Origin: a virus
Length of the DNA stretch: 17,734 nt
Strand: one strand, 5' to 3'
Virus genome (UHGV): UHGV-1681308
Numbering within the stretch: position 1 is the first letter of the stretch; every line of letters starts with the position of its first letter. The position numbers were made by a program, and so were the translations under genes. Positions 1-17,734 of the stretch are shown here, piece after piece. Below the pieces are notes generated by a model. That model was not told the DNA's origin. It ran no database searches and was given only the letters and a program-made list of their open reading frames with translations.

Positions 1-119
1 ATGTTGCAACCGTGGGTCACACGGTAAGAGGCGCGGTGATGGTGCTTGTGACATTTGTCACAAGCACCAAGTGATCCGCGAAGACAATCCGGTGCAACGC
101 CGGATGAGATCATGACAGT
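1..119 (+). mobile_element. tnpB: 3' terminus of a TnpB/IStron-type element truncated by the window edge: last 8 codons of tnpB (MLQPWVTR, stop at 25..27) plus omega-RNA scaffold to the right-end boundary
   Basis: Positions 1..119 align to 10192..10310 (3' end of the intact tnpB at 9133..10218 and its downstream region) at roughly 90% identity. Similarity stops abruptly after 119/10310. A 28-nt hairpin at 41..68 differs in stem sequence from the second copy but keeps its pairing. Confidence 0.7.
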
Positions 120-140
120 ACTATTTAACAGGAGCACACA

Positions 141-617
141 ATGACAGAGCGAGAATTGCGGCTCCGGCTGAGGCGGCTCCTGGGTACGGACAGGGGACTG
201 CCGGTCGAGAAGCTCGCTGCAGAACTGACGACACACAAGGTGGACATATTGCCGTACATGACGTGGTTGTGGAAGACACATGGACAGAAGTTCAGAGTGC
301 TGCTGACAAAGAAAGTGGCAGACTACGCAAAAGCGGCGGAAAAGGAAAAACAGAGCCTTCCGCAGCTGATCGTAAATGCTGGCACAATTTTCTTGCGACT
401 CTCAGAAGGCTCGCTTGAATCCGACAGGACTATCGAGATACTCGGTGACATGTGCGAACCTTATGCACTGTACTTCTTATTTGCAGGCGTAGGATTGCCC
501 TGCGACAAGTACCGCGCAGCAGCCAAGGAATACGCAGCTATGTTTCCTGACGCAGTGCGTGCTCTGCCTGAACCGTATAAGAAACTCGGAGAGGCTATGA
601 CACATGATACCACTTGA
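141..617 (+). CDS. hypothetical protein (158 aa), first gene downstream of the element right end
   Basis: ATG at 141 preceded by AGGAG (131..135). Stop overlaps the start of the next gene. No motif recognised. Confidence 0.6.
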   Translation: MTERELRLRLRRLLGTDRGLPVEKLAAELTTHKVDILPYMTWLWKTHGQKFRVLLTKKVADYAKAAEKEKQSLPQLIVNAGTIFLRLSEGSLESDRTIEILGDMCEPYALYFLFAGVGLPCDKYRAAAKEYAAMFPDAVRALPEPYKKLGEAMTHDTT

Positions 618-3102
618 CAAGCATGACTTGACTATGCTGCATGTGCTCAGCTCAGAGAAACTGATGCTGAAGTCGCTGAAGGCTGCCAAGGCAGGGCAGG
701 AACTGTTTCCACCGAGACGTGTACCGCATCTTGATCTGCTGTGGCGACACTTCATACGTTTCGCCATACAATCCAAGAAAGAAGGGCACTGGCTGCAGTG
801 GGACAGACAGGCGTATGTAGCTGACTGCCTCGAAGAACTGAAGCAGCGTGACGACATCAGCGACGAATGCAAAGCGCGATTCCAGGCAATATGCGTACAG
901 TATATCGGCGCTGAGCCATTGGACGCCGAGGCAGGCGACAAGCTGCTGCTGGAAGCTGTCAACGAAGCTATCAGAGCACAGATCAGCAGAGCCGTGTACA
1001 ATTCCGAGGCTTTCGACGGCATCAGACAACTGGTCAATAAAGGCGTCGCGCTGAAGGAGTCGTTGGAGACAGCTGACGAGAAGCAGAAATTGTTTGTGAA
1101 TCCGCTGCTTGAAGTCGAGACTTACCTGCATGTGTTGCCTAAGATGCCTACAGGTGTTCGCTACTTCGACAGAGTCACCAACGGCGGCATGTCTGAGGGC
1201 GAGGTAGCTTTGATTGCTGGATTGATGGGCGGTGGAAAGTGTCTTGGGAAAGACACACCCGTTCTCATGTACGACGGAACTGTAAAGAAAGTTCAGGATG
1301 TACGTGTAGGTGATCAGCTTATTGGTATGGACTCTACACCAAGAACAGTAATGTCTTTAGGTAGAGGTCGCAGTGAAATGTATAAAGTCACACCAGTAAA
1401 AGGTGATCCATTTACAGTTAACAGGTATCATATTCTGACAATGATATGCAGTGGTCCTGTAATATGGAAAGGAGTCAGATATAAACCAGGTGATCTTATT
1501 GATATCTGCGTTGAGGATCTGTACAGGCAATCCGACAGCTTTAAGTCACTTCTTAAGGTTATCAGAACAGGAGTGAACTTTAAACCTAAGGAGGAGCCTG
1601 AGTTAGATCCTTATTTTGTAGGTTTGTATTTGGGAGATGGAACGAAAGGAAAAGCCCAGATCACAACTGGTGACACAGAAGTTGTCGACTACTGTGTTAA
1701 GTATATGCAAGGTTTAGGTTTTGCATGTAATGTATCCAAAGATACTAGACATAACTGCGTTTATGTCAGTATAAGTAGAGCCAGCAACAAAACCGAAGGT
1801 GCGTTAACTATAATTCGTAGGAATACGTTTATAGATGATGAGAAGCGAATTTTGGATGTGTATAAGACTGGAAGCAGAGAGATTCGCATGAAAATACTTG
1901 CGGGTCTAGTTGACTCTGATGGATACACGCACCATGGTTTCCATGAGATAGTTACGAAGTATAGTAATCTAGCAGATGATATATGCTTCGTAGCGCGATC
2001 ATTAGGGTATGCAGCATATGTTAAAAAGTGTGAGAAAAAATGCTATAATACAGGTGCTGCAGGTACGTACTATAAGGTCAGTATATCTGGAGATTTCTCA
2101 GACTTACCTGTTTTGTTACCTAGACATAAGTTGTCAAAACGTAAGCAAGTCAAATCTGTGCTGAGGACAGGATATACTATAACCAAATTACCCGAGGATG
2201 AGTATTATGGGTTTACCATAGATGGTGATCACAGATTTCTTCTGGGTGACTTTACAATTACACATAACACAGCAACAGCAATCCAACTGGTAGGCAGTCA
2301 ACTGCTTGTAGGCAATCCAGTAGCATGGTTCACATTCGAGCAGCCGTTCGATCAGGACCTGATGCAGCGTATGGTATCCTTCATCACAGGCTACAGCCTG
2401 GACATCATACGTGGACGGGAATTCAAGGATCTGCCCGAGGACATTCGGGCAAAGTTTCTCACATTGAGCAACCAAATGTCGGACAAACTGATAGCAGCAG
2501 ACTTCTCGAACAACAACATGCTTGACAAGAACGATCCCGAGGATGATGGCTCTGTTTACAGTCTGTGCAAACGACTTGACATATGGGCTGACCAAGGCAA
2601 AGTGCCAAGCTACATCATGTTCGACTGGGTAGGCGCGGCAGTGAAACGCCTAGCGGCTGTACGCAGCATAGACATCGGGCAGATCACCAACTACATTGCG
2701 CTTGCCAATGAGATCATCGACGGTCTCGTACAGCTTGCCAAGCAGTACCATACGCGTGTAATCTTCTTTCATCAGCTGGATCCGGCGATCAAGAAGTCGC
2801 CTCCGTCCAGGAAGCCTACGACTGTGGAGCTTCAGATGATGAAGACGATGTCGAACTACACGCAGTACGCAATGGCAATCGGCAAGCGTGACGAAAATCA
2901 GCGCTGTTGGTTCATCTGCGACAAGTGCCGTAACAGCTACCCGTCAGAATGCGTCATCGAGCTGGATGGTGCACACGCCAAGTTCAATCTTCTGGAAGGA
3001 TATGCACCAGGCCGCAACGGACAGTTCATAAATATCAACGAGCTGCAGGAGGAGCTCAACGACAACAGTGACACGGCAGACAGCTACCAGCCTATAATCT
3101 GA
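604..3102 (+). CDS. intein-containing P-loop ATPase, probably a DnaB-like (SF4) replicative helicase; extein about 489 aa plus intein 343 aa
   Basis: Walker A GLMGGGK is followed immediately by Cys, and the extein resumes with T after the intein (reconstituted GLMGGGKT). C-extein has a Walker B-like YIMFDWV and a DnaB H4-like RVIFFHQLD. Extein size and P-loop position fit DnaB; a terminase or other RecA-fold ATPase is not excluded. Confidence 0.7.
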   Translation: MIPLDKHDLTMLHVLSSEKLMLKSLKAAKAGQELFPPRRVPHLDLLWRHFIRFAIQSKKEGHWLQWDRQAYVADCLEELKQRDDISDECKARFQAICVQYIGAEPLDAEAGDKLLLEAVNEAIRAQISRAVYNSEAFDGIRQLVNKGVALKESLETADEKQKLFVNPLLEVETYLHVLPKMPTGVRYFDRVTNGGMSEGEVALIAGLMGGGKCLGKDTPVLMYDGTVKKVQDVRVGDQLIGMDSTPRTVMSLGRGRSEMYKVTPVKGDPFTVNRYHILTMICSGPVIWKGVRYKPGDLIDICVEDLYRQSDSFKSLLKVIRTGVNFKPKEEPELDPYFVGLYLGDGTKGKAQITTGDTEVVDYCVKYMQGLGFACNVSKDTRHNCVYVSISRASNKTEGALTIIRRNTFIDDEKRILDVYKTGSREIRMKILAGLVDSDGYTHHGFHEIVTKYSNLADDICFVARSLGYAAYVKKCEKKCYNTGAAGTYYKVSISGDFSDLPVLLPRHKLSKRKQVKSVLRTGYTITKLPEDEYYGFTIDGDHRFLLGDFTITHNTATAIQLVGSQLLVGNPVAWFTFEQPFDQDLMQRMVSFITGYSLDIIRGREFKDLPEDIRAKFLTLSNQMSDKLIAADFSNNNMLDKNDPEDDGSVYSLCKRLDIWADQGKVPSYIMFDWVGAAVKRLAAVRSIDIGQITNYIALANEIIDGLVQLAKQYHTRVIFFHQLDPAIKKSPPSRKPTTVELQMMKTMSNYTQYAMAIGKRDENQRCWFICDKCRNSYPSECVIELDGAHAKFNLLEGYAPGRNGQFININELQEELNDNSDTADSYQPII
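1240..2268 (+). mobile_element. intein (343 aa) with LAGLIDADG homing-endonuclease domain, inserted in the Walker A P-loop
   Basis: N-terminal splicing block CLGKDTPVLMYDGT begins with Cys at 1240. Two LAGLIDADG motifs: YFVGLYLGDGTKG and KILAGLVDSDGYTHH. C-terminal block GFTIDGDHRFLLGDFTITHN is followed by the +1 nucleophile Thr at 2269. The intein DNA looks visibly AT-richer than the flanking extein. Confidence 0.85.
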
Positions 3103-3954: not shown

Positions 3955-5334
3955 ATGCAAAAAGACATTACAAGATCAACACAGACAACATCCTATGTGA
4001 GAACAAGTATAGTAGACAACGAAGCTGCAGGAACTGATTTCCAGCAGGTTTTCCCATATCAGAAGAAGCTGTTCGGTCGCATTCTGTGGCCCAGCAAGGA
4101 CAGCATCGTGCGTATTGTACCCGGCAATGATGGTACACATACATTCCCGCAGGTAATCAACGCAGATACATGGACCACAGACGGTGACCAGACAAATTAC
4201 CTGTCTGACACTTTCTACATGACATACACTCTCAGCGGTTTCGGTGACAGCAAATGCGATATCTGCAGCAACCTGAAGCCAGGCAGTGATGAAGCCGCTA
4301 TGTATCCTGAATCCCCGCTCAATTACTTCTGCAACAAGATACATCGTACCATGCGGTATGTCTTGCAGGGTAAGGGCACGAAAGTCAGGTACAATGACAA
4401 GTGGCGCATGTGGACAGGGCTGCAAGGTACATTGCCGTTCCCGAAACCTACACTCATGTTCCAGGCTATCTGTGTACATCTGTGCGGAAGGGACTGTCTT
4501 AAGGAGGGCGAGGGAACTGATCCGGCACCTTTGTATGGCGTGATAGGCATCAATAACAAGACATCCATTGGCGAGCTCGTCAAGGCGCTTGTCGCACCCA
4601 TGGACAGACGCAGACCCATCGGTACAAACAACAACACATATGGTGCACTTGCAGAGGCGGCAGGCAACGTACTGTATCTGAACAGCGTCATAGACACTCA
4701 AGAGCACAAGTATCTTCAGCCCAGCATTCAGAGTTCGTCTGCACCTGCAAACAGCTGGGAACCTCAGCAGTACGACCTGACAGAGGACCTGTGCAAGCAG
4801 CTGTGGGTTCCCTGGGATAGAGTGCTGAAATACTATACAGTAAAAGAGCAGCTCGAACTTATAGCGTCTGAGTTTGGCGCTGATACTGTGAATTACGTGT
4901 TCTCTCTGTCTCCGCAGTGGGAAGGTCTGCAGATTCCTGAGCGCATTGCCGCTGTAGGTATGGGGCAGTACGCAGAGAATGCTCAGAGAGCTCCTTCATA
5001 TAGTGCCTTTGGACAGAACGTGCAGAAACAGGCATTTGGCAGTGCTCCCAGACAGGCAGCGCCAGCTTCAACGGCAAGTGCTGTTCCTGGGCTCAGCAGG
5101 GCTGCTCAGCCGTCTTTTGCGCTGCCGAATACGACACCTTTAGCCGGTGGCACTGCAAGTCCTGCTGTAAGCATGGACAGCATCAAAGCAGAGCTGGCAA
5201 AGATCAGAGCGGCCGCCAATACTGCACCCAGTGGAGCGGGAGCATTGGCAAGTGCTATGTTGAACGATCTCGAACTGCCGCCTGATGATGACGTCTACGA
5301 AGCTACAGGTGAGGAAAGTCTGGGAATCGAATAA
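3955..5334 (+). CDS. hypothetical protein (459 aa) with a low-complexity Ala/Ser/Pro region and an acidic C-terminal tail; possibly an ssDNA-binding or other replication accessory protein
   Basis: Strong RBS AAGGAG at 3944..3949 and ATG at 3955. C-terminus ...LELPPDDDVYEATGEESLGIE follows a disordered A/S/P-rich segment. Function is guessed from the tail and the replication-gene neighbourhood only. Confidence 0.6.
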   Translation: MQKDITRSTQTTSYVRTSIVDNEAAGTDFQQVFPYQKKLFGRILWPSKDSIVRIVPGNDGTHTFPQVINADTWTTDGDQTNYLSDTFYMTYTLSGFGDSKCDICSNLKPGSDEAAMYPESPLNYFCNKIHRTMRYVLQGKGTKVRYNDKWRMWTGLQGTLPFPKPTLMFQAICVHLCGRDCLKEGEGTDPAPLYGVIGINNKTSIGELVKALVAPMDRRRPIGTNNNTYGALAEAAGNVLYLNSVIDTQEHKYLQPSIQSSSAPANSWEPQQYDLTEDLCKQLWVPWDRVLKYYTVKEQLELIASEFGADTVNYVFSLSPQWEGLQIPERIAAVGMGQYAENAQRAPSYSAFGQNVQKQAFGSAPRQAAPASTASAVPGLSRAAQPSFALPNTTPLAGGTASPAVSMDSIKAELAKIRAAANTAPSGAGALASAMLNDLELPPDDDVYEATGEESLGIE

Positions 5335-5346
5335 CTAAAACATTCA

Positions 5347-5368
5347 GCCGGGTACTTATGTGCCCGGC
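5347..5368 (+). promoter_or_regulatory. GC-rich stem-loop between the upstream stop and the RBS of the first pentapeptide-repeat gene
   Basis: gccgggta (5347..5354) pairs with tgcccggc (5361..5368) around a 6-nt loop. It lies 3 nt upstream of the AAGGA RBS at 5371..5375. No U-tract follows, so it is not a classic intrinsic terminator. Confidence 0.35.
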
Positions 5369-5383
5369 ATAAGGACAAACAAG

Positions 5384-6406
5384 ATGAAAACAAAAAGAGT
5401 ACTGAAGAAAAACGCAATCAAGGCTTACAAAGCCTTCAACAGTGACCTGACTTGCAAAGGCTTCCGGTATGAAGTCGGCAAGGAATACCACCATAAAGGC
5501 AAGCTTGAGCTGTGCGAGGCAGGCTTCCATGCCTGCCCCAAACTGACTGACTGCTTCAATTTTTACCCGTTCGATAAAACTGAAACCAGAGTGGCCGAGG
5601 TGCTCGTCTGGGGTAAAGTCGAGTACGAAGACATAGGTGACAAGCTCTGCGCCTCAAATATCAAGGTAGTCAGAGAACTTACATGGACAGAGGTGTTGTC
5701 TCTGTGTAACAGCGGCTGCCGTAACAGTGGCTACCGTAACAGCGGCTGCCGTAACAGTGGCAACGGTAACAGTGGCAACCGTAACAGTGGCAACCGTAAC
5801 AGTGGCAACCGTAACAGCGGCTACGGTAACAGCGGCGATTGTAACAGTGGCAACTGGAATAGCGGCAACAATAACAGCGGCAATGGTAACATCGGCCACC
5901 GTAACAGCGGCTGCCGTAACAGTGGCAGCTGGAACAGCGGCGACGGTAACAGTGGCTACTTAAATACTCCGGCACAAAAGTATAGCTTTATTTTTAACAA
6001 ACAAGTTGAAAAGTCAGTCTTGGCTCAGATTGAGTTTCCGGAGTTCATGTGCTTCACTTTGTCAAAATGGATACCTGACTTCATAATGTCACAGCAGGAG
6101 AAAAAGCAGCACCCTGAATACGTTACAACAGGCGGTTATCTCAAGAAGTACACATATAAGGAAGCCTTCAGGAAGTCCTTCGAGGAAGCCAGACGCAAAC
6201 CTGACTGGCCCGAACAGCTTGAGAAGCTGAAATCACTGCCTAACTTCGATGCCAAGGTATTCGAGGAGATATCAGGCATCAAATCAAACGCACTTGGAAT
6301 CAGCGCTAAGGAGCTGGCAGACAAGGCAAAGACAGCCATGGAAGTCACAATGGCGGACATAGAGAAGGTATTCGGTTGCAAAATCAAGATTGTAGAGGAG
6401 AAGTGA
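5384..6406 (+). CDS. pentapeptide-repeat protein (N-x-G-x-x type, about 17 pentads) with conserved Cys/His-containing N-terminal domain and conserved C-terminal domain; paralog 1
   Basis: ATG at 5384 with AAGGA at 5371..5375. Central region is NSGCR NSGYR NSGCR NSGNG NSGNR NSGNR NSGNR and so on. N-terminal VLKKNAIKAYKAFNSDLTCKGFRYEVGK...CEAGFHAC and C-terminal KQHPEYVTTGGY...PDWPEQL...LPNFD.KVFEEISGIK are shared with 10835..11797. Confidence 0.8.
   Translation: MKTKRVLKKNAIKAYKAFNSDLTCKGFRYEVGKEYHHKGKLELCEAGFHACPKLTDCFNFYPFDKTETRVAEVLVWGKVEYEDIGDKLCASNIKVVRELTWTEVLSLCNSGCRNSGYRNSGCRNSGNGNSGNRNSGNRNSGNRNSGYGNSGDCNSGNWNSGNNNSGNGNIGHRNSGCRNSGSWNSGDGNSGYLNTPAQKYSFIFNKQVEKSVLAQIEFPEFMCFTLSKWIPDFIMSQQEKKQHPEYVTTGGYLKKYTYKEAFRKSFEEARRKPDWPEQLEKLKSLPNFDAKVFEEISGIKSNALGISAKELADKAKTAMEVTMADIEKVFGCKIKIVEEK
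5706..5957 (+). repeat. about 17 tandem copies of a 15-bp unit (GTAACAGYGGCNNNN) encoding the pentapeptide repeats, including three consecutive identical units
   Basis: Direct reading: cgtaacagtggcaac occurs three times back-to-back around 5765..5815, flanked by near-identical units. The period of 15 nt (5 codons) keeps the frame. Confidence 0.85.
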
Positions 6407-8234: not shown

Positions 8235-8460
8235 TCTTGATGTAGATGTGTCGGACCTTATGTGTCCGCACTGCGGTTCTGTCGACAGTGTCAAGTTGAT
8301 CGACCTTGGACCCGAACGAGATGCAGAGGGCGAATACGGTAACGTCAGATGCACCTGCTATGAGTGCGGCTGGTCGACATGTGACATGGATACAGCAGAG
8401 GACGCAGTGTACGCTTTTATCATCGGTCTCGACTGTGATATCAGGCACGACATAATATGA
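8221..8460 (+). CDS. small zinc-ribbon protein (about 79 aa)
   Basis: CPHCG ... CTCYECG four-Cys pattern. The ORF is open from 8059, but that part overlaps the preceding gene, so the start is placed at ATG 8221. Stop overlaps the next start (ATGA). Confidence 0.45.
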   Translation: MQTVNLDVDVSDLMCPHCGSVDSVKLIDLGPERDAEGEYGNVRCTCYECGWSTCDMDTAEDAVYAFIIGLDCDIRHDII

Positions 8461-8657
8461 AACCGATAGGCTACGGGAAGCTCACCAAGTTCCTCAAAGC
8501 CACAGCACCGATATCAAAGCAGTTTGAGAACGAAGTTCTGCGGGATGAGCGTCTCGCAGAACTTTTTTCGTGTGTAGCTGAGGTTGTGCTGCCGAAAGCT
8601 ACAGAACCGCAGAGATGGGCGTTGTGGCAGTGTTTCAAGGGTCTGAAAGGCGTTTAA
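8457..8657 (+). CDS. hypothetical protein (66 aa)
   Basis: ATG at 8457 overlapping the upstream stop. Ends 27 nt before the IStron left end. Confidence 0.45.
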   Translation: MKPIGYGKLTKFLKATAPISKQFENEVLRDERLAELFSCVAEVVLPKATEPQRWALWQCFKGLKGV

Positions 8658-8683
8658 CAACGCCCTTTAACCAGTGATGGCTA

Positions 8684-9110
8684 TCGAACAAGAAAGTGAA
8701 TTGCTAATAGATCCCAAGAGCCTCACGACGCCTGTAACAAGGATCGAAAGAGAAAACAAAGAAGTGAGGATACCGCAAGGCGACAGTAAGCCTAAACGGG
8801 AGTGACAACGGACGTTTAGCAGCCGAGCCATGCGTTCGACAGAACGCCAGCGCATGGAAGGTTCATCGACTATCCCAGATGGGAGTACCCGAGTAGCCAT
8901 GCTGCGACAGCAGCAAAAGTAAGGGGAAGCACTCTGGCTCAGGAATGAGTCAATGATATAGTCAGTGCTTCATGGAAACATGAAGAGTGGTCTCCTATTG
9001 ACACGGAGAAACCTGCTGTTACCCTGGCAAGGTACAGTGAACAGAACCATGGTCTCATTAAATGCAACATTAATTTGACGTTTTGATTTTCTGTATAAGG
9101 ATGTATATTA
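8684..9110 (+). ncRNA. putative group I intron ribozyme core (IStron intron module)
   Basis: R-like element GTTCATCGACTATCC (8861..8875) and S-like element GATATAGTC (8955..8963) can form P7 (GACTA/TAGTC). Several hairpins lie between them and upstream (ctaaacg/cgtttag at 8792..8819, gcgttc-gaca-gaacgc at 8832..8847, gctgc-gaca-gcagc at 8901..8914). No ORF. Not verified by a covariance model. Confidence 0.5.
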
Positions 9111-9132
9111 TCTGTATACAATAAGGAGTGCC

Positions 9133-10218
9133 ATGTACAGAGCCCACAAGATACGCATAGATTGCACAAGAGAGCAGCACAGCCTGTTAATGCAGACTGC
9201 TGGCTGCGCTCGTTATGCGTACAATTGGGGACTCGATAAGTGGGGCAAGATGTACGAAGCCTGGAAGGCTGATGCCTCGCAGGAGAAACCGGACAGATAT
9301 TCTGTAGCCAGACAGTGGACACAGGAGAAACCAGAGTGGGCAAATAAGACATCCAGAAGTCCAGTTGACTACTCTTTTATCAACCTCGGCACCGCCTTCA
9401 AGAACTTCTCAAGGCGCAAAACAAAGTACCCGAAGAAGCACAAGAGGTCACAGGGAATCTCATTCCAAGTGGCACCTGACAAGGCAGCTATAGTTGACAA
9501 CCAACTTAGACTGCCTAACATAGACTACGTGAAGCTCCGAGAGACTCCACGCTTCCAGGGCAAGATAACAGGCTACACAGTTCAGTACATAGCTTCCCAC
9601 TGGTACGTTACAATCGCCTTCGACTGTCCAGACGTCCCAAAAGAAGCACCGGAGTCCGTCGTCGGTATCGACGTAGGACTCCAGCACCCTGCTGTAGCCT
9701 CCGATGGCACCAAACTAGAGCTCCCCATAGAGAAGCTCCAAAAGCTCGAAGTCAAGAAACGTAGAGCACAGCGAGCCCTCAGCAGGAGCAAGAGAAACTC
9801 CAATGCGCGAAAGCGCAAGCGTACCAAACTCCAGCGTATACAACAGAAGATTACCAACATCCGTCAGGATGCAGCCCACAAGTTTACAACTACGGTGAGC
9901 AAAAACCACGCCACTGTAGTCACAGAAGATCTGGACATAAGTGAGCTCCAAAAGAAGGCCCCCGCACGTTCAGTGCGCAGAGCATACAACAGCTCCCTTA
10001 TGGGAACCATTCTTTGGCAGATCTCGTACAAAGCGGTGCACCATATCAAGGCACCAAAGTACTTTCCGAGCACCAAGAGATGCTCAACTTGTGGACATGT
10101 GAAGGAGGCTATGCCTCCGAACGTCAGGACATATCATTGCGACCACTGCGGTACACATCTCGATAGAGATGAGAACGCAGCTCGCAACTTGATGTTGCAA
10201 CCGTGGGTCACACGGTAA
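9133..10218 (+). CDS. tnpB: TnpB (OrfB) RuvC-like RNA-guided nuclease, IS200/IS605 family
   Basis: 361 aa. N-terminus MYRAHKIRIDCTREQHSLL...RYAYNWGL. RuvC-I GIDVGL, RuvC-II VVTEDLD, zinc finger CSTCGH...CDHCG, RuvC-III DRDENAARNL. RBS AAGGAG at 9123..9128. Confidence 0.9.
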   Translation: MYRAHKIRIDCTREQHSLLMQTAGCARYAYNWGLDKWGKMYEAWKADASQEKPDRYSVARQWTQEKPEWANKTSRSPVDYSFINLGTAFKNFSRRKTKYPKKHKRSQGISFQVAPDKAAIVDNQLRLPNIDYVKLRETPRFQGKITGYTVQYIASHWYVTIAFDCPDVPKEAPESVVGIDVGLQHPAVASDGTKLELPIEKLQKLEVKKRRAQRALSRSKRNSNARKRKRTKLQRIQQKITNIRQDAAHKFTTTVSKNHATVVTEDLDISELQKKAPARSVRRAYNSSLMGTILWQISYKAVHHIKAPKYFPSTKRCSTCGHVKEAMPPNVRTYHCDHCGTHLDRDENAARNLMLQPWVTR

Positions 10219-10326
10219 GAGGCGCGGTGATGGTACAGGCAGCATTCGCTGCAGGTACCAGATGATCCGCGAAGACAATCCGGTGTAACGCCGGATGAGA
10301 TCATGACAGTGCGTGTAACACATCGA
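10120..10326 (+). ncRNA. putative TnpB omega RNA (reRNA) scaffold overlapping the tnpB 3' end, plus about 16 nt of flank as guide (gcgtgtaacacatcga)
   Basis: Scaffold conserved with the copy at 1..119, including a hairpin at 10232..10259 with compensatory stem changes and a second conserved hairpin atccggtg-taa-cgccggat. Conservation ends exactly at 10310. The 5' boundary is a guess. Confidence 0.5.
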
Positions 10327-10834
10327 CATATAGTGTCCTGTATCTGCAGAGCAGCAGCAAACCTGCACTACATCCACGAGGGTATCGCACCCTTCTATTG
10401 GGATGGCAACAGGGCAGCTGCTGTGATGAATTGTCTAGGTATAGAACAAGATGTAGCCGCTAAAGGAAAGCGCAGACTGCTAGTGCATTTGATGTGTCTG
10501 CTGGGTGAACCTGCCGGACTGATGTTCAAGGTATCTCTGAGCTGCAACATGCTGGAGTACTTGCTGGGCAAACATTTTGGCGTCTCTTTTCGAAAGTATA
10601 ATGCAGCGGCTGAAGAGATCGCCGGTTGTGTCTTCAAGTGCACAGTAAGTGAGGACACAGCAGGGGCCTATCTAGCGGATTTCAGCGCAACACAAGCTAT
10701 GAAAGACCACAACAGAAAGCTGGCAGAGATGCGCATAAACCCAAGAAAATGTAAAACACCTGCAATGCCATGTGCATCCTGTACTAAAACCAGGGCTCAG
10801 TGCATTTTGGCATGTAAAGTTAAGGACAAACAAA

Positions 10835-11797
10835 ATGAAAACAGAAAAAGTACTGAAGAAAAATGCAATCAAGGCCTATAAAGCCTTCAACAGCGACCTG
10901 ACCTGCAGAGGCTTCCAATATGAAGTCGGTAAGACCTACAGACATATATTCCTAATCCGCTGTTGCGAGTCAGGATTCCATGCTTGTGAAAGGCTGGTTG
11001 ACTGCTTTGGCTACTATGAACCAAACCAAGCAAAAACTCGAATTTGCGAGGTTCTGGTCTGGGGCGATATTCAGAGGCATGATAAAGACACCAAGTTATG
11101 CGCATCCAGAATCCATATTGTCAAAGAGTTGTCCTGGAACAAAGTATGTCGTCTATGCAATAATACCGGCATCGGCAATCAGGGCTTATATAACTCTGGG
11201 AATTATAACAGTGGAAACTCAAATTCCGGTAACTGGAATGCAGGCAATAACAACAAAGGTAAGTACAATTCAGGTGATTGTAACATTGGTTTAGGTAATG
11301 TAGGCACAGGCAATATAGGCAATAATAACTGTGGCCAATATAATTACGGTCATAGGAATTCCGGAAACAATAACATAGGATGCCGCAATGTAGGAAACTA
11401 CAATACGGGCTACTATAATGTCGGTAACTGGAACAAAGGGTCGTTTAATATCGGCTGCTTCAATACAGCAGATGCCATTGTACATATGTTTAACAAGCCT
11501 GTTGTCGGAATCAGTCCATTCGATATTTTAGTCCCAGGTTTCTGCATCTTTGATACGACAGAATGGGTGTCGGCCAGATGTATGACAGATGAAGAAAAGA
11601 AGCAGCACCCTGAGTACGTTACAACAGGAGGATACCAAAAACAATACGCCTACAAGGAAGCCTTCAGGAAGTCCTTCGAGAAGGCAAAGCGACTCCCAGA
11701 TTGGCCCGAACAGCTTAAGAGGCTAAAGGCGCTGCCGAATTTCGATGTAAAGGTATTTGAGGAGATATCAGGTATCAAGGAAGAGGAACTTATGTAA
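10835..11797 (+). CDS. pentapeptide-repeat protein (degenerate N-x-G-x-x repeats), paralog 2 of 5384..6406
   Basis: ATG at 10835 with AAGGA at 10822..10826; the RBS and first ~110 nt are roughly 90% identical to paralog 1. Repeat region GNYNSGNSNSGNWNAGNNNKGKYNSGDCNIGLGNVGTGNIGNNN... The conserved C-terminal domain ends ...FEEISGIKEEELM. Confidence 0.8.
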   Translation: MKTEKVLKKNAIKAYKAFNSDLTCRGFQYEVGKTYRHIFLIRCCESGFHACERLVDCFGYYEPNQAKTRICEVLVWGDIQRHDKDTKLCASRIHIVKELSWNKVCRLCNNTGIGNQGLYNSGNYNSGNSNSGNWNAGNNNKGKYNSGDCNIGLGNVGTGNIGNNNCGQYNYGHRNSGNNNIGCRNVGNYNTGYYNVGNWNKGSFNIGCFNTADAIVHMFNKPVVGISPFDILVPGFCIFDTTEWVSARCMTDEEKKQHPEYVTTGGYQKQYAYKEAFRKSFEKAKRLPDWPEQLKRLKALPNFDVKVFEEISGIKEEELM

Positions 11798-13324: not shown

Positions 13325-14665
13325 ATGAAAAAAGGACTCGGAAACCTGCTGGATGCACTCAGTAAGGCAGACGGCGGCGTCAGTATGTCCATTACAGAAT
13401 TCAAAGAAGCCCAGTACGGCATTCCGCTTAAGCATTACTGTTTGCAGTATCTTTTCGGCAGCACCGGGCTCAGGTACGGCGGCTTTTATCTGCTTGCCGG
13501 TAAGCCGAAGTCGTGCAAATCGCCCTTTGCTTTCTTCCTTGCACATCTCAGCTGCGAGAATGATGGCATTGCATATGTGTACGAACTTGAAGGCAAGGCG
13601 TCACCGACGTTGCTGACCAGCATGTTTGCAGACAGGCCCGAATGGCGAGAGGATGGCGGCCCTTTCAAGCTCATCCGAGGACTGACATTGGACGGCGCCG
13701 AGAAGCACCTTACAAAGTCTGTGCTCAAACTTTTCAAGCAGTACGAGGTTTACGATACTCCGCTGCTGATCGACTGGGACTCCATCTCAGGAGCTGCGAT
13801 GTCAGATGTCGTGTCCAAGATCGAGAAGGAAGGCGTAGCCAGTAAAGGCTACTATGAAAAAGCGCACATCATGAAGCATCTGACAGAGAGCTGGGTCGCA
13901 CTTACCAACAACATGCCTGTCGTGTTCGTCGGCGTCTTGCAGGAAAAGGAAAAGGCTGCAGAGGGATGGGCACCTGCAGGCGGACCGCAGAAGTCGTATG
14001 GCGGTGGCGATTCGCAGTTGTTCAAGGCAGGTACATTACTGTCGTTCTCTCACAGCACGCTGCAGAACGGTGCTGGCAAGCTCGTTCGTATCAAGACTGC
14101 ACTGAACGGATTTGCAGACAGCAGAGGCATTGAAGTAAAGTTTGTCTGGGATCAGTTCGGCGACCTTGAGACCGATTCACAGGGGCACAAGTGGCTTTTC
14201 GCAGAGGCGACGGCAAAGTGCCTCGCACAGCCGAAGATCGTAGGCGAGCTCAGAGACATCATTGATGTGAAGATCAATGATTCCGGCGACAGAGTGACTT
14301 GCAAGACGTTCGGTCTTGACAAGGTTACAGCAACAGAGTTCGAGGAAGCCCTGTTTGCGCCTGAGAACGCCAAGGTACTGGAAGATCTGTACAGATACCA
14401 AAAGATAGAAAAGATCAAGCTGCCCTCAGAGTATGCAGCTTACGCCGAGAAAGCAGGAGACAAGGAAGCCGCATATAAAGAGGCGCAGAAGCAGGCACAG
14501 CTCGAAGAGCGTGAGGCCAAGGCTGCGGAAGCTGCCGCAAAGGAAGCAGCCAAGCAGGCAAAACGAGAGGCGAAAGTCAAGAAGTCAGCTGCGGCATCCA
14601 ATCCGTTAGCGGCTTTAGCAGACATGGCAAAGAAAGCTGAGGCATCAGATGCAAAAGCTGAATAA
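13325..14665 (+). CDS. RecA-family recombinase, UvsX-like, with a Lys/Ala/Glu-rich low-complexity C-terminal tail
   Basis: Variant Walker A LLAGKPKSCKS resembles the T4 UvsX GPSKSFKS type. Walker B-like PLLIDWDS. L2-like GGPQKSYGGGDSQLFKAG. YVYELEGKASPTLLTSMFADRPEW resembles the UvsX segment after Walker A. RBS GAGGAG at 13314..13319. Confidence 0.7.
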   Translation: MKKGLGNLLDALSKADGGVSMSITEFKEAQYGIPLKHYCLQYLFGSTGLRYGGFYLLAGKPKSCKSPFAFFLAHLSCENDGIAYVYELEGKASPTLLTSMFADRPEWREDGGPFKLIRGLTLDGAEKHLTKSVLKLFKQYEVYDTPLLIDWDSISGAAMSDVVSKIEKEGVASKGYYEKAHIMKHLTESWVALTNNMPVVFVGVLQEKEKAAEGWAPAGGPQKSYGGGDSQLFKAGTLLSFSHSTLQNGAGKLVRIKTALNGFADSRGIEVKFVWDQFGDLETDSQGHKWLFAEATAKCLAQPKIVGELRDIIDVKINDSGDRVTCKTFGLDKVTATEFEEALFAPENAKVLEDLYRYQKIEKIKLPSEYAAYAEKAGDKEAAYKEAQKQAQLEEREAKAAEAAAKEAAKQAKREAKVKKSAAASNPLAALADMAKKAEASDAKAE

Positions 14666-14990
14666 CAAGCGCGTGTTCTGTACACCTTACGACGATCAGC
14701 GTATCGTGACAGCAAAAATCAAGAACGAAAAACACTATGTACTGAAAGCATGTCCGTTCTGCGGACGCAAGCCGGTAATCGAGACAGTGGAGCCGATATT
14801 CCATGATGATAAAGTCCAGTACTTTGTCTCATGTGCGCACCACGGCTGCGACTGCTACACAAGAACCTATCGCAGCCCAGGTGAGGCAATCGCGAAATGG
14901 AACAGACGCATCAGTCCGCTCGATCGCATTGTCGCTTCTGACTTGAAACGCAGTCTTAAAGCAGCGCAGAAAGAGGCGACAAATGTGTGA
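14649..14990 (+). CDS. Lar-family restriction-alleviation-like small Cys protein (putative anti-restriction)
   Basis: CPFCG ... SCAHHGCDC ... EAIAKWNRR matches the pattern I recall for Lar-family proteins (CPFCG zinc motif, conserved AW-NRR near the C-terminus). The identification rests on recalled motifs, not a search. Confidence 0.5.
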   Translation: MQKLNNKRVFCTPYDDQRIVTAKIKNEKHYVLKACPFCGRKPVIETVEPIFHDDKVQYFVSCAHHGCDCYTRTYRSPGEAIAKWNRRISPLDRIVASDLKRSLKAAQKEATNV

Positions 14991-15684: not shown

Positions 15685-16160
15685 TGCCGAATGCACAGCT
15701 TATGGCTGCGCTGCACGCAAGTACCAAAGCGTTGCGTGAAATGGCACGCGACGACGCCACATACGACTTCGTGTATGCGCACAAAAACATGTTCGTCGGC
15801 AACAGAGAAGCCTTCAAGTCTGCTGTAGCCGCGTGTCAGGAGCGCTCAGGCAGAGAGCTGCTTGACAAGCTGGATCTGCAAGAGATCTGCATCGAGAAAG
15901 TAACCGAAGCAGAACTGCTGCACAGCTGCTACTACTTTGTCGACAGTCCACTGTATAAGCGCTTCATTCAGCTCACCAGCAGGCATGGCGGCATAGGTAC
16001 GGCAATCTTCGTCGTCAACAAGCGAGGCGTTGTTGTCACTAATAAGTACAGTCTGGACGCCTACGTACGGGTCAAGCATGTACTTGGCAGCACCGGTAAG
16101 TTGCCTGACATCATGTGGGCGCCAATAGAAGACCTTAAAGGTTTCACGTTCTACAACTAA
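15684..16160 (+). CDS. hypothetical protein (158 aa)
   Basis: ATG at 15684 overlaps the upstream stop (TGATG), with GGAGGTG at 15672..15678. Confidence 0.55.
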   Translation: MPNAQLMAALHASTKALREMARDDATYDFVYAHKNMFVGNREAFKSAVAACQERSGRELLDKLDLQEICIEKVTEAELLHSCYYFVDSPLYKRFIQLTSRHGGIGTAIFVVNKRGVVVTNKYSLDAYVRVKHVLGSTGKLPDIMWAPIEDLKGFTFYN

Positions 16161-16169
16161 GGAGGTTGG

Positions 16170-17734
16170 ATGCTGGAAACAAAAGTCATGTTCAATGCCA
16201 CAGAGCTCACAATCAAAGTGTCTGTGTGGGCACGGGGCGACCCGTTCCCTGCTATTGGGCATGCTGTAGGTATAGACACAGAAACCGAACTTATTACGGA
16301 CGCCGAGCTTACGCCGCCATTGGTTGTACTCGGCGTTTTCAATCCTGCCGACATGACTTGCTACCAGATAGCATGGAGTGATGCACAGTACTTCATGCAG
16401 GAGCTGCTTAAGCGTGACTGCAAGCTGTACTTCGCCAATGCAGGGTTCGACTACTTCGAGCTGGAGAGTGATGAGCTTCGGGATGCGGTCAGCAATGACC
16501 GTCTCGTAGACTTGCTCATCAGAGCTCCGCTTAAAGAGATCGCCACTATAGGGTACATCAGAACGCACAGCCTGAAGGACGCCTGCCAATGGCATCTCAA
16601 TTACGAGATGGACAAACATGAGGACGAAGGCGACCAGGCAGCTCGTGTCACGTTCCGCAGGAACAAAGACATCACAGATGAGCAGCGCATTTACCTGGCA
16701 ATCGACTGCGCGGCTACTTATTACGGGTGCGAGGCGATTGGTCCTCAGGCGACAGAGTGTACACATACACGCGGTCAGATAGTCCTGTATCATATCAGCA
16801 AGAACGGTTTTCCGTACGACCCGTACATGTTCGACTACTGCGAGAAGCTGCTGCAGCAGCATATGGATCAGTATCGTGCAGAGCTCATCACGTACGGGTA
16901 TCCGGATCCGTACAAGAAAGATATGCCCACTGAAATCAAGCAGCTGCAGGACGGCTGGCCTATGTTCAGGGACGCCTGGTTCGCTGCGCATATCAAAGAA
17001 AAGTACCAGTTCGAGGACTCGCTGCCAGGCAAGAGCACAGTAAAGCGCATACTGCTGTACGGCACTGCGTATATGCAGCACGGTACAGATAAAGGCACTC
17101 TGGCGCGGGTGTTCGCAGCATTGCTGCTGCAGGACAAGAACCTGTCCAAAAAGGAACAGGCTGCATATGACCAGCTGGTGGAGGAGCACGACTTCCTGGA
17201 TGCCTGCAATGGTATCGGCAAGAAGGAGGTTTGGCCGACGCTGCTGGTCGCGTGGATGCGTGCCGAGATGGACGGCAAGGACATCGCTGGCATATGGCAG
17301 GCAGTGGACGATGCGGTGCAGGACCATCCGCAATGGTTCTGTACTGAGGAGCCTGTCAAGCCCAAGGCATTCATGCAGGACCACCTGCGGGAACTGCAGG
17401 AAAAGTACCCTGGACTGGAGTTCGACAAGACGCTTAAGTCAGGTGAGCTGAAGTGCTCAAAGAAGGACGCGTGGAAGCTGGCGGATGCGGGGGTGAACGA
17501 TCCGTTGCTGACCGCGTACGTGAACTTTGGTCATGTGCAAAAGTACAAGTCGTCGTTCACGAACAGGGAATACCTCAGGAGCGACGGCAGAGTAAGGTGC
17601 CGCTTTGGCATCGTGGAGAGCGGTCGGTTTGGCCGCTTCACACCGCGAGGTGTGTCGAACAAGAAAGTGAATTGCTGGAACACCTTAACGGGTAACGCCG
17701 AAGGCAATCAGCAGCCGAGCCTTGTATCGAGAGA
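16170..17734 (+). CDS. family-A DNA polymerase, N-terminal part (3'-5' exonuclease domain plus start of polymerase domain); runs off the window and is probably interrupted by an IStron from about 17655
   Basis: Strong RBS TAAGGAGG at 16158..16165. Exo I VGIDTETE, Exo II NAGFDYFEL, Exo III YLAIDCAATYY. The frame stays open to the window end; the track omits it only because it has no stop in the window. From 17655 the DNA matches the IStron 5' end, so sequence beyond about 17654 is probably intron, not exon. Confidence 0.65.
   Translation, partial: MLETKVMFNATELTIKVSVWARGDPFPAIGHAVGIDTETELITDAELTPPLVVLGVFNPADMTCYQIAWSDAQYFMQELLKRDCKLYFANAGFDYFELESDELRDAVSNDRLVDLLIRAPLKEIATIGYIRTHSLKDACQWHLNYEMDKHEDEGDQAARVTFRRNKDITDEQRIYLAIDCAATYYGCEAIGPQATECTHTRGQIVLYHISKNGFPYDPYMFDYCEKLLQQHMDQYRAELITYGYPDPYKKDMPTEIKQLQDGWPMFRDAWFAAHIKEKYQFEDSLPGKSTVKRILLYGTAYMQHGTDKGTLARVFAALLLQDKNLSKKEQAAYDQLVEEHDFLDACNGIGKKEVWPTLLVAWMRAEMDGKDIAGIWQAVDDAVQDHPQWFCTEEPVKPKAFMQDHLRELQEKYPGLEFDKTLKSGELKCSKKDAWKLADAGVNDPLLTAYVNFGHVQKYKSSFTNREYLRSDGRVRCRFGIVESGRFGRFTPRGVSNKKVNCWNTLTGNAEGNQQPSLVSR
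17655..17734 (+). mobile_element. 5' terminus of a second IStron-like element (group I intron module) inside the polymerase gene; truncated by the window edge
   Basis: 17655..17676 is identical (22/22) to the left end at 8684..8705. The downstream block agcagccgagcc and the taacggg segment are shared with 8792..8830. This copy lacks an ~85-nt segment present at 8706..8790. Confidence 0.5.

Follow-up and report, generated by a model that had tools for sequence, protein, structure and literature searches.

IStrons, in which a group I intron is joined to the open reading frame (ORF) of an insertion sequence (IS), are to our knowledge the sole known case of one transcript choosing between a ribozyme and a nuclease guide, and those described or tested are few, all of them from Firmicutes and from two Clostridium botulinum phages. 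Their first description dates from 2000 and a survey from 2014 (PMC4227781), and their mechanism was worked out in 2023-2026 (Zedaveinyte et al. preprint; Mortman and Sternberg 2026). Phage-borne copies (c-st, D-1873), the multi-copy CdISt1, and the tnpA-less CsISt1 are already on record (PMC4227781). Here we analyse UHGV virus genome UHGV-1681308, a complete metagenome contig (ERZ773229 NODE-1285, 4.6x coverage) whose full length of 17,734 bp is referred to as the window. With a probability of about 85%, its plus-strand segment 8653..10309 is an IStron, that is, a group I intron of IA2-like type which splices itself and carries tnpB together with the scaffold of the TnpB guide RNA (omega-RNA).

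The element shares the general traits of the described IStrons: a group I intron at the 5' side with an IS ORF downstream, borders that coincide with the exon junction, a complementary 5' target, and an enclosing inverted-repeat stem. A preliminary description, made from the sequence of the window, had proposed this arrangement, which is now corroborated by intron-less alleles at two sites, a covarying ribozyme, and an omega-RNA with three predicted stem-loops. Its borders of 8684-10310 had to be corrected, as the start lay 31 nt too far in, missing the 3' strand of P1 and the whole of P2, and the end 1 nt too far out. It had also considered multiple copies in a phage-like replication module to be unusual. 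Such a module is indeed present, but phage-borne, multi-copy and tnpA-less IStrons had been published, so that the arrangement is uncommon, not unprecedented.

Element borders and the interrupted gene

Both DNA junctions are exact to the base. Deletion of 8653..10309 in silico joins ORFs of 66 aa and 192 aa into a single frame of 255 codons and restores a conserved gene, whose uninterrupted homologue (L009:1914-2678) is colinear with it and 92% identical across all 255 aa. The DNA alignment places ...CTGAACGGCG TGCGTGTAACACA... of L009 against ...CTGAAAGGCG (TTTAACAA......TCATGACAG) TGCGTGTAACACA... of the window (element in parentheses), and the expected ligated exon junction 8652/10310 reads ...CTGAAAGGCG/TGCGTGTAACAC. 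At a second, independent site, the element in L007 is found as ...ACAGGAG (CTTAACAA......TCATGACAG) AGTACACAG..., with the empty allele in L018:5720-5800. The right end TCATGACAG is constant in all copies and is followed by T, A or C; together with the intron-less alleles, this constant end and its variable next base define 8653 as the first and G10309 as the last base of the intron. G10309 is invariant in every copy of three tnpB variants and in TnpB relatives of 42% identity. The earlier proposal that the 3' splice site coincides with the junction between omega-RNA and guide is supported by this conserved G and by the junction as given by the two intron-less alleles. A 5' splice site after U8653 or U8655, as would follow from assuming the canonical U, is ruled out by the intron-less alleles.

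Self-splicing is predicted from these junctions to join the exons exactly. Between the interrupted and uninterrupted alleles, the ratio of nonsynonymous to synonymous substitutions (dN/dS) is 0.10 (0.115 for exon 1 and 0.094 for exon 2, at a dS of 0.35), which indicates that both halves are still under purifying selection. For annotation, split ORFs in such phages, here of 66 aa and 192 aa, are to be taken as single genes.

The order of intron, tnpB, and right end is the same in all complete copies, and tnpB is present in each type-B intron of which enough sequence is available. The TnpB has close relatives (81-91% identity) on many contigs of 186-195 kb and also on IMG/VR contigs with lengths of 95 and 192 kb. 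Among the matches to type-B junctions are contigs that bear the label human-gut metagenome, and distant relatives (TnpB 42% identity) occur in goat, yak, and rabbit gut assemblies. Isolate phage genomes gave no DNA match, and their TnpB relatives are at most 33% identical. A chimera assembled from repeats at the contig ends would fit the 4.6x coverage and the location of both contig ends in repeated intron or IStron sequence. As an explanation of the element, such an artefact is practically negligible, since the same order, at 1,654-1,678 nt, is found again in numerous separate assemblies and samples, some of them contigs as long as 95-192 kb, and since the complete copy lies in the interior of the contig.

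The ribozyme and its target sites

The group I core-like R and S elements noted in the preliminary description are present (GTTCATCGACTAT at 8861-8873 and GATATAGTC at 8955-8963) and together form the predicted P7 (Table 1). As had been stated, the segment before tnpB is free of ORFs, in that the plus strand has none of at least 50 aa from 8658 to 9132; on the minus strand, Pfam gave no match for the ORFs 8667..8900 and 8939..9352. A permissive search with the Rfam model RF00028 aligned the full model (1-253) to 8642..8985 with 31.9 bits (E=9e-6). The proposed Rfam scan thus returned a full-length group I match, but one below the gathering score of 50, at which nothing in the window passes. 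Lack of any group I match had been named beforehand as a refutation of the IStron; for the window copy this is nearly the situation at the Rfam threshold, and the family evidence alone rescues the assignment. Relatives exceed the gathering score (L012:9121-9417 with 54.1 bits, L086 with 65.3, L108 with 69.7). In the RF00028 alignment, the window copy has large insertions in P5 and between P7 and the 3' strand of P3, which coincide with the lower score.

More than 40 related introns were retrieved through pattern, protein, and profile searches. As minimum free energy (MFE) folding of the ribozyme alone misses the group I topology, the family alignment was used; since MAFFT mis-registers the 5' region across the P5 insertion, P1, P2, and P4 were compared through anchored extraction. 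The RNAalifold consensus of 13 distinct sequences contains 72 pairs, with 98% of the 911 cells paired and two-sided changes in 35 of the 72. When partners were slid by 1-3 columns as a control, 33-41% of cells remained paired and two-sided changes were found in 2-9 pairs. The covariation score is 0.433 compared with at most 0.064 in the controls, and none of 500 shuffles reached the observed values. Covariation is found in P6, P7.1, P7.2, P8, P9, P9.1, and P9.2. P3 and P7 are invariant and therefore contribute no covariation evidence; moreover, whole helices have apparently been exchanged between copies, so that the independent events are fewer than the cell counts suggest. The P2 hairpin is replaced elsewhere by GAGGA-GUGA-UCCUC, GGCGC-GUGA-GCGCC or CACACC-GCGA-GGUGUG, which indicates that its stem is maintained through compensatory changes. 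The absence of a foldable P3-P9 core had likewise been listed as a refutation; the alignment shows a conserved predicted P3-P9 core with covariation. Subgroup IA is characterised by helices between P7 and the 3' strand of P3, which are here P7.1 and P7.2. Published IStron ribozymes have been classed as IA2 (Tourasse et al. 2014, PMC4227781).

The 5' splice site lies after G8652, which pairs with C8661. In 25 of 26 distinct junctions, representing ~24 sites, the last four bases of the flank agree exactly with the reverse complement of the P1 guide sequence, and the 26th junction pairs with its guide sequence through G-U. Four exon/guide classes are found (GAGG/CCTC, GGCG/CGCC, GGAG/CTCC, and GAAG/CTTC). 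The exon is always complementary to the guide sequence, which argues for selection on P1 pairing. Beyond the tetranucleotide, flanking sequence is unrelated between sites on both sides, the 3' flanks are variable, and there is no target duplication. This predicted pairing pattern matches the one described for IStrons. The coexistence of four guide/target classes and the total lack of a wobble in P1 are features not described in the cited literature.

tnpB, omega-RNA and mobility

The tnpB gene is intact, as had been claimed, and the alignment to ISDra2 TnpB shows all RuvC and zinc-finger residues. The Pfam domains HTH_OrfB_IS605, OrfB_IS605, and Cas12f1-like TNB score 50.7, 72.5, and 50.3 bits (their cut-offs being 21, 30.5, and 26.3), guided_TnpB of NCBIfam scores 219 bits against a cut-off of 100, and PHROG 506 matches with E=6e-87. 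The NCBIfam IS200/IS605 model gives 228 bits and the IS607 model 179. The suggested search against TnpB and Cas12 proteins found, besides the Cas12f1-like domain, the solved ISDra2 TnpB, aligned over residues 4-356 (E=9e-41). D180, E265, and D346 fall on its catalytic residues D191, E278, and D361, and the CxxC pairs are formed by 317/320 and 336/339.

The cassette is enclosed by a predicted helix of CAUGGUCUCA and UGAGAUCAUG, which covaries in two other tnpB variants (CAUGGACUUC/UAAGUUCAUG and CAUGGUAGUU/GACUAUCAUG). Its loop of 1,238 nt contains a promoter-like site, tnpB, and three stem-loops. ORF-less siblings have at their 3' end a hairpin CUUGGUGU-GUACA-ACAUCAAG with a 5-nt loop, followed by CCUG or ACAG. 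By this comparison, the tnpB cassette occupies what is predicted to be the terminal loop of the last hairpin of the intron. The promoter-like site can also be read, weakly, as TTGATT, 15 nt, and the extended -10 TGTATATT; the same layout precedes the variant-2 tnpB in L007 and L014.

The last 114 nt fold with an MFE of -49.3 kcal/mol (z=-4.97; none of 200 shuffles folds as well), and the stems of stem-loops (SL) 1, 2, and 3 are kept between tnpB variants through compensatory changes. Neither the gathering nor the permissive Rfam search matched any family to the omega-RNA region, so that the omega-RNA scan proposed earlier gave nothing. The published omega-RNA architecture comprises three stem-loops and a nexus pseudoknot (Zedaveinyte et al. 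preprint), on which the pseudoknot proposed here between the SL1 loop and the tail is modelled. The SL1 loop GGUCA and the tail UGAC are unchanged even where the TnpB is 42% identical. Following the published logic of IS605 and IS607 TnpB, the first ~16-20 nt of the 3' exon (TGCGTGTAACACATCG...) are the predicted TnpB guide.

In a read-through transcript of the host gene, the exon bases GGCG would pair with CGCC to form P1, and the enclosing 10-bp helix 9048-9057/10296-10305 would carry ACAG(10309) to the ribozyme core. The IStron would then be spliced from the mRNA, and the phage gene would stay functional. In other transcripts, which may start at the internal promoter-like site or remain unspliced, the last ~114 nt would fold into SL1-SL3 and the GUCA/UGAC pseudoknot and bind TnpB, retaining the downstream exon bases as guide. 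Since the strands of the helix and the pseudoknot share 10304-10305, four bases from the splice site, the splicing and guide-RNA fates would be mutually exclusive. We infer that these shared bases are the structural reason for the published antagonism between intron and guide RNA (Zedaveinyte et al. preprint; Mortman and Sternberg 2026).

Several points weigh against an active IStron. One is the Rfam score; another is that the support for splicing comes from DNA, in the form of colinearity with intron-less alleles and the dN/dS of 0.10. Nearly all group I introns have a canonical U-G at the 5' splice site; here the exon-final G pairs with C, P1 is without a U-G wobble, and its loop offers no G for one. 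By inspection, no conserved or convincing P10 pairing of the P1 loop with the 3' exons was found. In the unspliced RNA, the exon 1 frame stops at TAA 8655-8657 in the P1 loop, three bases past the junction, and the frame of exon 2 is shared by ATG 10303-10305, which is part of the conserved right end (ATGACAG). Such a TAA and in-frame ATG also occur in L007 and at none of the other sites; the pair leaves split expression of the two exons conceivable and may be coincidence. The pseudoknot bases never vary, so that the pseudoknot is without covariation support and is drawn by analogy. Further, TnpB proteins more than 91% identical adjoin both GGAG and GAGG, and variant 1 flanks both GGCG and GAGG. 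With one TnpB beside several target motifs, a degenerate G-ending target-adjacent motif (TAM) is likely. Splicing after G has been reported for group B IStrons (PMC4227781) and shown experimentally (Zedaveinyte et al. preprint).

The score under the gathering threshold, the 5' splice site without U-G, the stop past the junction with the in-frame ATG in the right end, and also a ribozyme-less tnpB cassette in L002 would fit a ribozyme that is a relic, with a plain tnpB-only insertion sequence splitting the host gene and the halves expressed separately or not at all. This is very improbable in view of core helices that are 98% paired with 35 two-sided changes, an exon that complements the guide sequence at ~24 sites, a dN/dS of ~0.1 for both exons, and relatives with 54-70 bits on the group I model. 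Moreover, sibling introns lie in active-site motifs of DNA polymerase, where loss of splicing should kill the phage.

If the element is an active IStron, its TnpB-RNA complex would cut intron-less alleles, in which a G-ending purine-rich motif is followed by TGCGTGTAACACA, in co-infecting relatives, and repair from the IStron-bearing genome would copy the element in. The nuclease would then act as an RNA-guided homing endonuclease, and the UvsX-like recombinase of the phage itself (13325..14665) could drive the repair. Presence/absence polymorphism is found in both directions at ~90% nucleotide identity: L009 has no insertion at the site of the window element, and the window has none at the site occupied in L003. 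The empty allele of the L003 site is at window 5291..5341 (junction ~5320/5321, where ORF 3955..5334 ends). In L003, the element has its right end at L003:4177, and its 3' flank TGGGAATCGAATAACTAAAAC is identical to the window over 21 nt; the window consequently carries sequence that matches the predicted guide of the L003 element.

No tnpA was found in the window or inside any element copy, in a search that covered the window and the elements. A tnpA beside TnpB was also sought in phages c-st and RCS47 for use as a query, and neither locus has one. A serine-recombinase core dinucleotide is unlikely, given that the target ends vary (GG, CG, AG) and the right end is always AG. The left end resembles IS608 in its succession of target, complementary tetranucleotide, and hairpin, which makes a Y1 transposase conceivable; contrary to it, the P2 hairpin is unlike SL3 and differs from copy to copy.

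The missing tnpA, the location of the cassette in a terminal loop like that of homing endonuclease genes, and the existence of ORF-less siblings would all suit a phage group I intron of the ordinary kind that has TnpB in place of a protein homing endonuclease, was never a transposon, moves by same-site homing only, and resembles IS200/IS605/IS607 ends incidentally. The dissimilarity of P2 and SL3, which speaks against one Y1 transposase binding both ends, and the poor fit of the variable target ends to a serine-recombinase core point in the same direction. We regard this account as possible and, on balance, unlikely. Same-site homing cannot yield ~24 unrelated sites that share a 4-nt motif alone, with variable 3' flanks and without duplication; in addition, the cassette is found without a ribozyme, and one lineage takes 46 extra bases on its 5' side into three contexts.

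Both of these latter arrangements are seen in individual loci. In L002:2900-4177, a variant-1 tnpB cassette lies between two genes, with leader, omega-RNA, and TCATGACAG end present and the 5' part of the ribozyme absent; this locus represents a freestanding tnpB element or else an IStron stripped of its ribozyme. A truncated remnant of a ribozyme-less cassette is found in L004:3001-3286. In one lineage, an identical 46-47-nt leader TTCAACGTGTGCCGCATGTGTTTCACATGCTGACCAGCACACAAAGG precedes the intron (L001:1052-1097, L003:2586-2631, L011:9074-9119, and L016). It occurs in three upstream contexts (...GCCG, ...AGAG, ...TTAG) and adds 15 in-frame codons relative to the empty allele in the window; the mobile DNA unit of this lineage seems to be larger than the intron.

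The four guide/target classes coexist with nearly identical TnpB and omega-RNA over the ~24 sites. As a speculative and rather doubtful extension of the IStron reading, the family may represent a third IStron lineage which spreads without a transposase of its own, with the 4-nt guide sequence selecting the target and a change of guide retargeting the element. Insertion could then proceed by reverse splicing through the 4-nt guide or by a DNA-level mechanism that reads the same four bases, and TnpB would serve only as an RNA-guided homing or exclusion nuclease in phage-versus-phage competition.

Table 1. Coordinates of the element, its predicted parts, and surrounding features in the window.
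Feature	Position	Strand	Remarks
5' exon of interrupted gene	8457..8652	+	function unassigned; 65 codons + 1 nt; intron-less homologue L009
Complete IStron	8653..10309	+	1,657 nt; starts TTTAACAA..., ends ...TCATGACAG; junctions from intron-less alleles
3' exon	10310..10881	+	in frame with exon 1 once 8653..10309 is removed
Ribozyme, P1 to P9.2	8649..9037	+	
P1	8649..8664	+	exon GGCG 8649-8652, loop UUUAACAA 8653-8660, guide sequence CGCC 8661-8664
P2 hairpin	8669..8682	+	AACCA-GUGA-UGGCU, GNRA loop
Ribozyme core and periphery	8685..9037	+	RF00028 match, family covariation
P3 and P4 with P5 extension	P5 extension 8708-8814	+	extension ~107 nt
P6	8827-8857	+	
P7	8868-8872 with 8959-8963	+	GACUA with UAGUC
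P7.1	8873-8884	+	
P7.2	8888-8925	+	
P3, 3' strand	8929-8935	+	
P8	8936-8951	+	
P9	8968-8985	+	
P9.1	8991-9009	+	
P9.2	9016-9037	+	
Enclosing helix, 5' strand	9048..9057	+	CAUGGUCUCA; 10/10 pairing with 10296-10305
Promoter-like site for tnpB	9083..9111	+	TTGATT, 17 nt, TATTAT; consensus scan, 9/12 matches, weak
Ribosome-binding site	9123-9128	+	AAGGAG
tnpB	9133..10218	+	intact, 361 aa; RuvC D180/E265/D346; zinc finger C317, C320, C336, C339
omega-RNA scaffold	10196..10309	+	predicted; three stem-loops and proposed pseudoknot
SL1	10201-10215	+	loop GGUCA
SL2	10232-10259	+	outer stem CGCGG/CCGCG
SL3	10280-10294	+	
Enclosing helix, 3' strand	10296..10305	+	UGAGAUCAUG; shares 10304-10305 with pseudoknot strand
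Proposed pseudoknot	10208-10211 with 10304-10307	+	GUCA with UGAC; published architecture as model
Terminal G (omega-G)	10309..10309	+	3' splice site = element right end = scaffold/guide junction
Copy A, 3' end of another element	1..118	+	last 27 nt of another tnpB, omega-RNA and right end; SL2 kept, compensatory changes
DnaB-like helicase/ATPase with intein	604..3102		832 aa; Pfam Hint, LAGLIDADG; PHROG DnaB-like helicase
UvsX-like recombinase	13325..14665		
Lar-like protein	14649..14990		
Family A DNA polymerase	starts 16170		
Related group I intron in DNA polymerase gene, 5' part	17625..17734	+	exon 1 = 16170..17624

Contig context and comparison with known systems

The ends of the element had been reported to recur at the window ends, and they do: 1..119 is 87% identical to 10192..10310, and 17636..17676 resembles 8665..8705. 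The assembly probably broke in these repeats. The claim of multiple copies holds for copy A, of which only the 3' end is seen, since the contig starts there; the complete element at this site is found in L164, with a 5' flank of ...GCGGCG and a TnpB 89% identical. The right end of copy A is followed by TACTATTTAA, AGGAG, and the ATG of ORF 141..617 (window 118-141). As the upstream gene would, in one frame, stop three codons past the junction, a stop codon apparently comes directly behind this IStron. The supposed copy at the 3' end is instead the start of the polymerase intron, which is ORF-less in relatives (L006:3177-3532), so that this sequence need not be a third IStron.

The polymerase intron has a canonical 5' splice site after U17624, U-G paired in P1. 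Removal of the ORF-less 356-nt intron at the same site of L006 rebuilds ...ESG/RTSASKPNLQQYP. A minus-strand 512-aa ORF (15846..17384) that overlaps the polymerase gene is almost certainly spurious; the plus-strand frame opposite encodes an exonuclease-like GIDTET motif and the ...ESG motif, which continues as RTSASKPNLQQYP in L006. The DNA polymerase gene of relatives (L006:3100-6400, L015:2500-6200) has at least two introns 120 nt apart, at the TGR motif and within motif A (VDYS), with further related ribozyme cores downstream. Behind the second intron comes a long AT-rich stretch, which possibly codes for another ORF. One 192-kb contig (loci L012-L018) has at least ten group I introns, a feature not described in the cited literature.

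The neighbouring genes form a phage replication and recombination module (Table 1). The DnaB-like protein contains an intein, marked by Hint matches at residues 213-278 and in a second stretch, with a LAGLIDADG homing endonuclease at ~426-497 and the PHROG helicase match at the C terminus; the contig thus bears an intein besides introns and IStrons. Two paralogous genes with DUF7666 and pentapeptide repeats (window 5360..6406 and 10772..11797) lie ~5.4 kb apart, with DNA segments 75-86% identical; the former holds a 15-nt tandem array at 5676-6005, and the latter overlaps the end of the IStron-interrupted gene.

A 16-mer contig scan gave 120 loci, of which six (L070, L084-L086, L107, L108) were confirmed by nhmmer or tblastn, most matches being due to chance. 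The distant IStron relatives L085, L086, L108, and L070, with TnpB 41-43% identical and ribozymes of 65-70 bits, are on contigs of goat, rabbit, and yak gut metagenome-assembled genomes assigned to Kiritimatiellae, Oscillospiraceae, and Spirochaetia. A 184-kb 'Kiritimatiellae' contig carries at least three IStron copies and may be a mis-binned phage.

Taken as an IStron family, these loci provide a natural series of dozens of copies, ORF-less siblings, and a ribozyme-less cassette in ~190-kb phages that are found in metagenome assemblies of the human and herbivore gut. They make a predicted structural conflict explicit, with the cassette in the loop of the last hairpin and the strands of helix and pseudoknot overlapping by two bases, and, with four guide/target classes, they are relevant to the old question of how group I introns come to occupy new sites. 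Additionally, they supply TnpB/omega-RNA pairs that are compact (361 aa) and whose TAM is apparently degenerate and rich in G.

Judged by its predicted features, the element fits the general IStron definition and neither subgroup fully, with CsISt1 as the closest description. For group A, it lacks a T-rich pentanucleotide target with U at -1, and no tnpA or tnpA fragment lies between ribozyme and tnpB; for group B, a GG ending is confined to the GAGG class, the element terminates in CAG, its stem has 10 bp of mixed composition, and tnpA is absent from the element. CsISt1 of Clostridium sporogenes (PMC4227781), compared with the window family and its four target classes (GAGG, GGCG, GGAG, GAAG) by description only, likewise has ORF B (tnpB) only, an AG-ending site, a CAG end, and an exon-final G. 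In contrast to the phage-borne window element of 1,657 nt, it lies on a chromosome, measures 2,369 nt, and was placed in the IS607-type group B.

The group B/IS607 IStrons (BcISt1; CboIStron of C. botulinum; CbISt3/4 of phages c-st and D-1873) resemble the window element in a purine-rich, G-ending target that pairs with the guide, a 5' splice site that follows G, and a 3' splice site that is at once right end and guide junction; to their omega-RNA of three stem-loops and a pseudoknot correspond the three stem-loops predicted and the pseudoknot proposed for the window element. In both, splicing competes, or is predicted to compete, with guide-RNA folding, and phage-borne copies exist. Group B is set apart by a serine-recombinase TnpA, a GG core (TGGG TAM), a CGG end, an enclosing stem of 15-34 bp with more than 80% AU, and a U at intron +1 that is predicted to pair with G, whereas the window element has no tnpA, an ACAG end, a mixed 10-bp helix, and an intron +1 (U or C) facing A. 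The TnpB of phage c-st is 31% identical to that of the window.

With CdISt1 of C. difficile (group A/IS200-IS605), the window element shares a short balanced stem (6-10 bp), a ...CAG end (TCAG there, ACAG here), many copies that lack a complete tnpA, the presence in one genome of freestanding introns as well as IS without an intron, and an IA2-type ribozyme. CdISt1 inserts after the T-rich TTGAT with a canonical U-G, whereas the window family inserts after G-ending tetranucleotides without a wobble.

Phage group I introns with homing endonuclease genes include those of T4 td, nrdB, and sunY, of Twort, and of the SPO1 DNA polymerase gene. Going by general knowledge and by the parts of the 2014 survey that bear on them (PMC4227781), they have in common with the window element an IA-like ribozyme in genes of DNA metabolism, a peripheral loop that holds an ORF, and the occurrence of both intron-bearing and intron-free alleles among related phages. 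In place of a protein that reads a long DNA site, the window element would use an RNA-guided TnpB with the 3' exon as guide. Finally, the ISDra2 TnpB (8bf8, 8exa, 8h1j) shares the catalytic triad, the zinc finger, and a guide-RNA scaffold, here a predicted one, which extends over both the 3' terminus of the ORF and the right end, while ISDra2 differs from the window element in its Y1 TnpA, its TTGAT TAM, and its lack of an intron.

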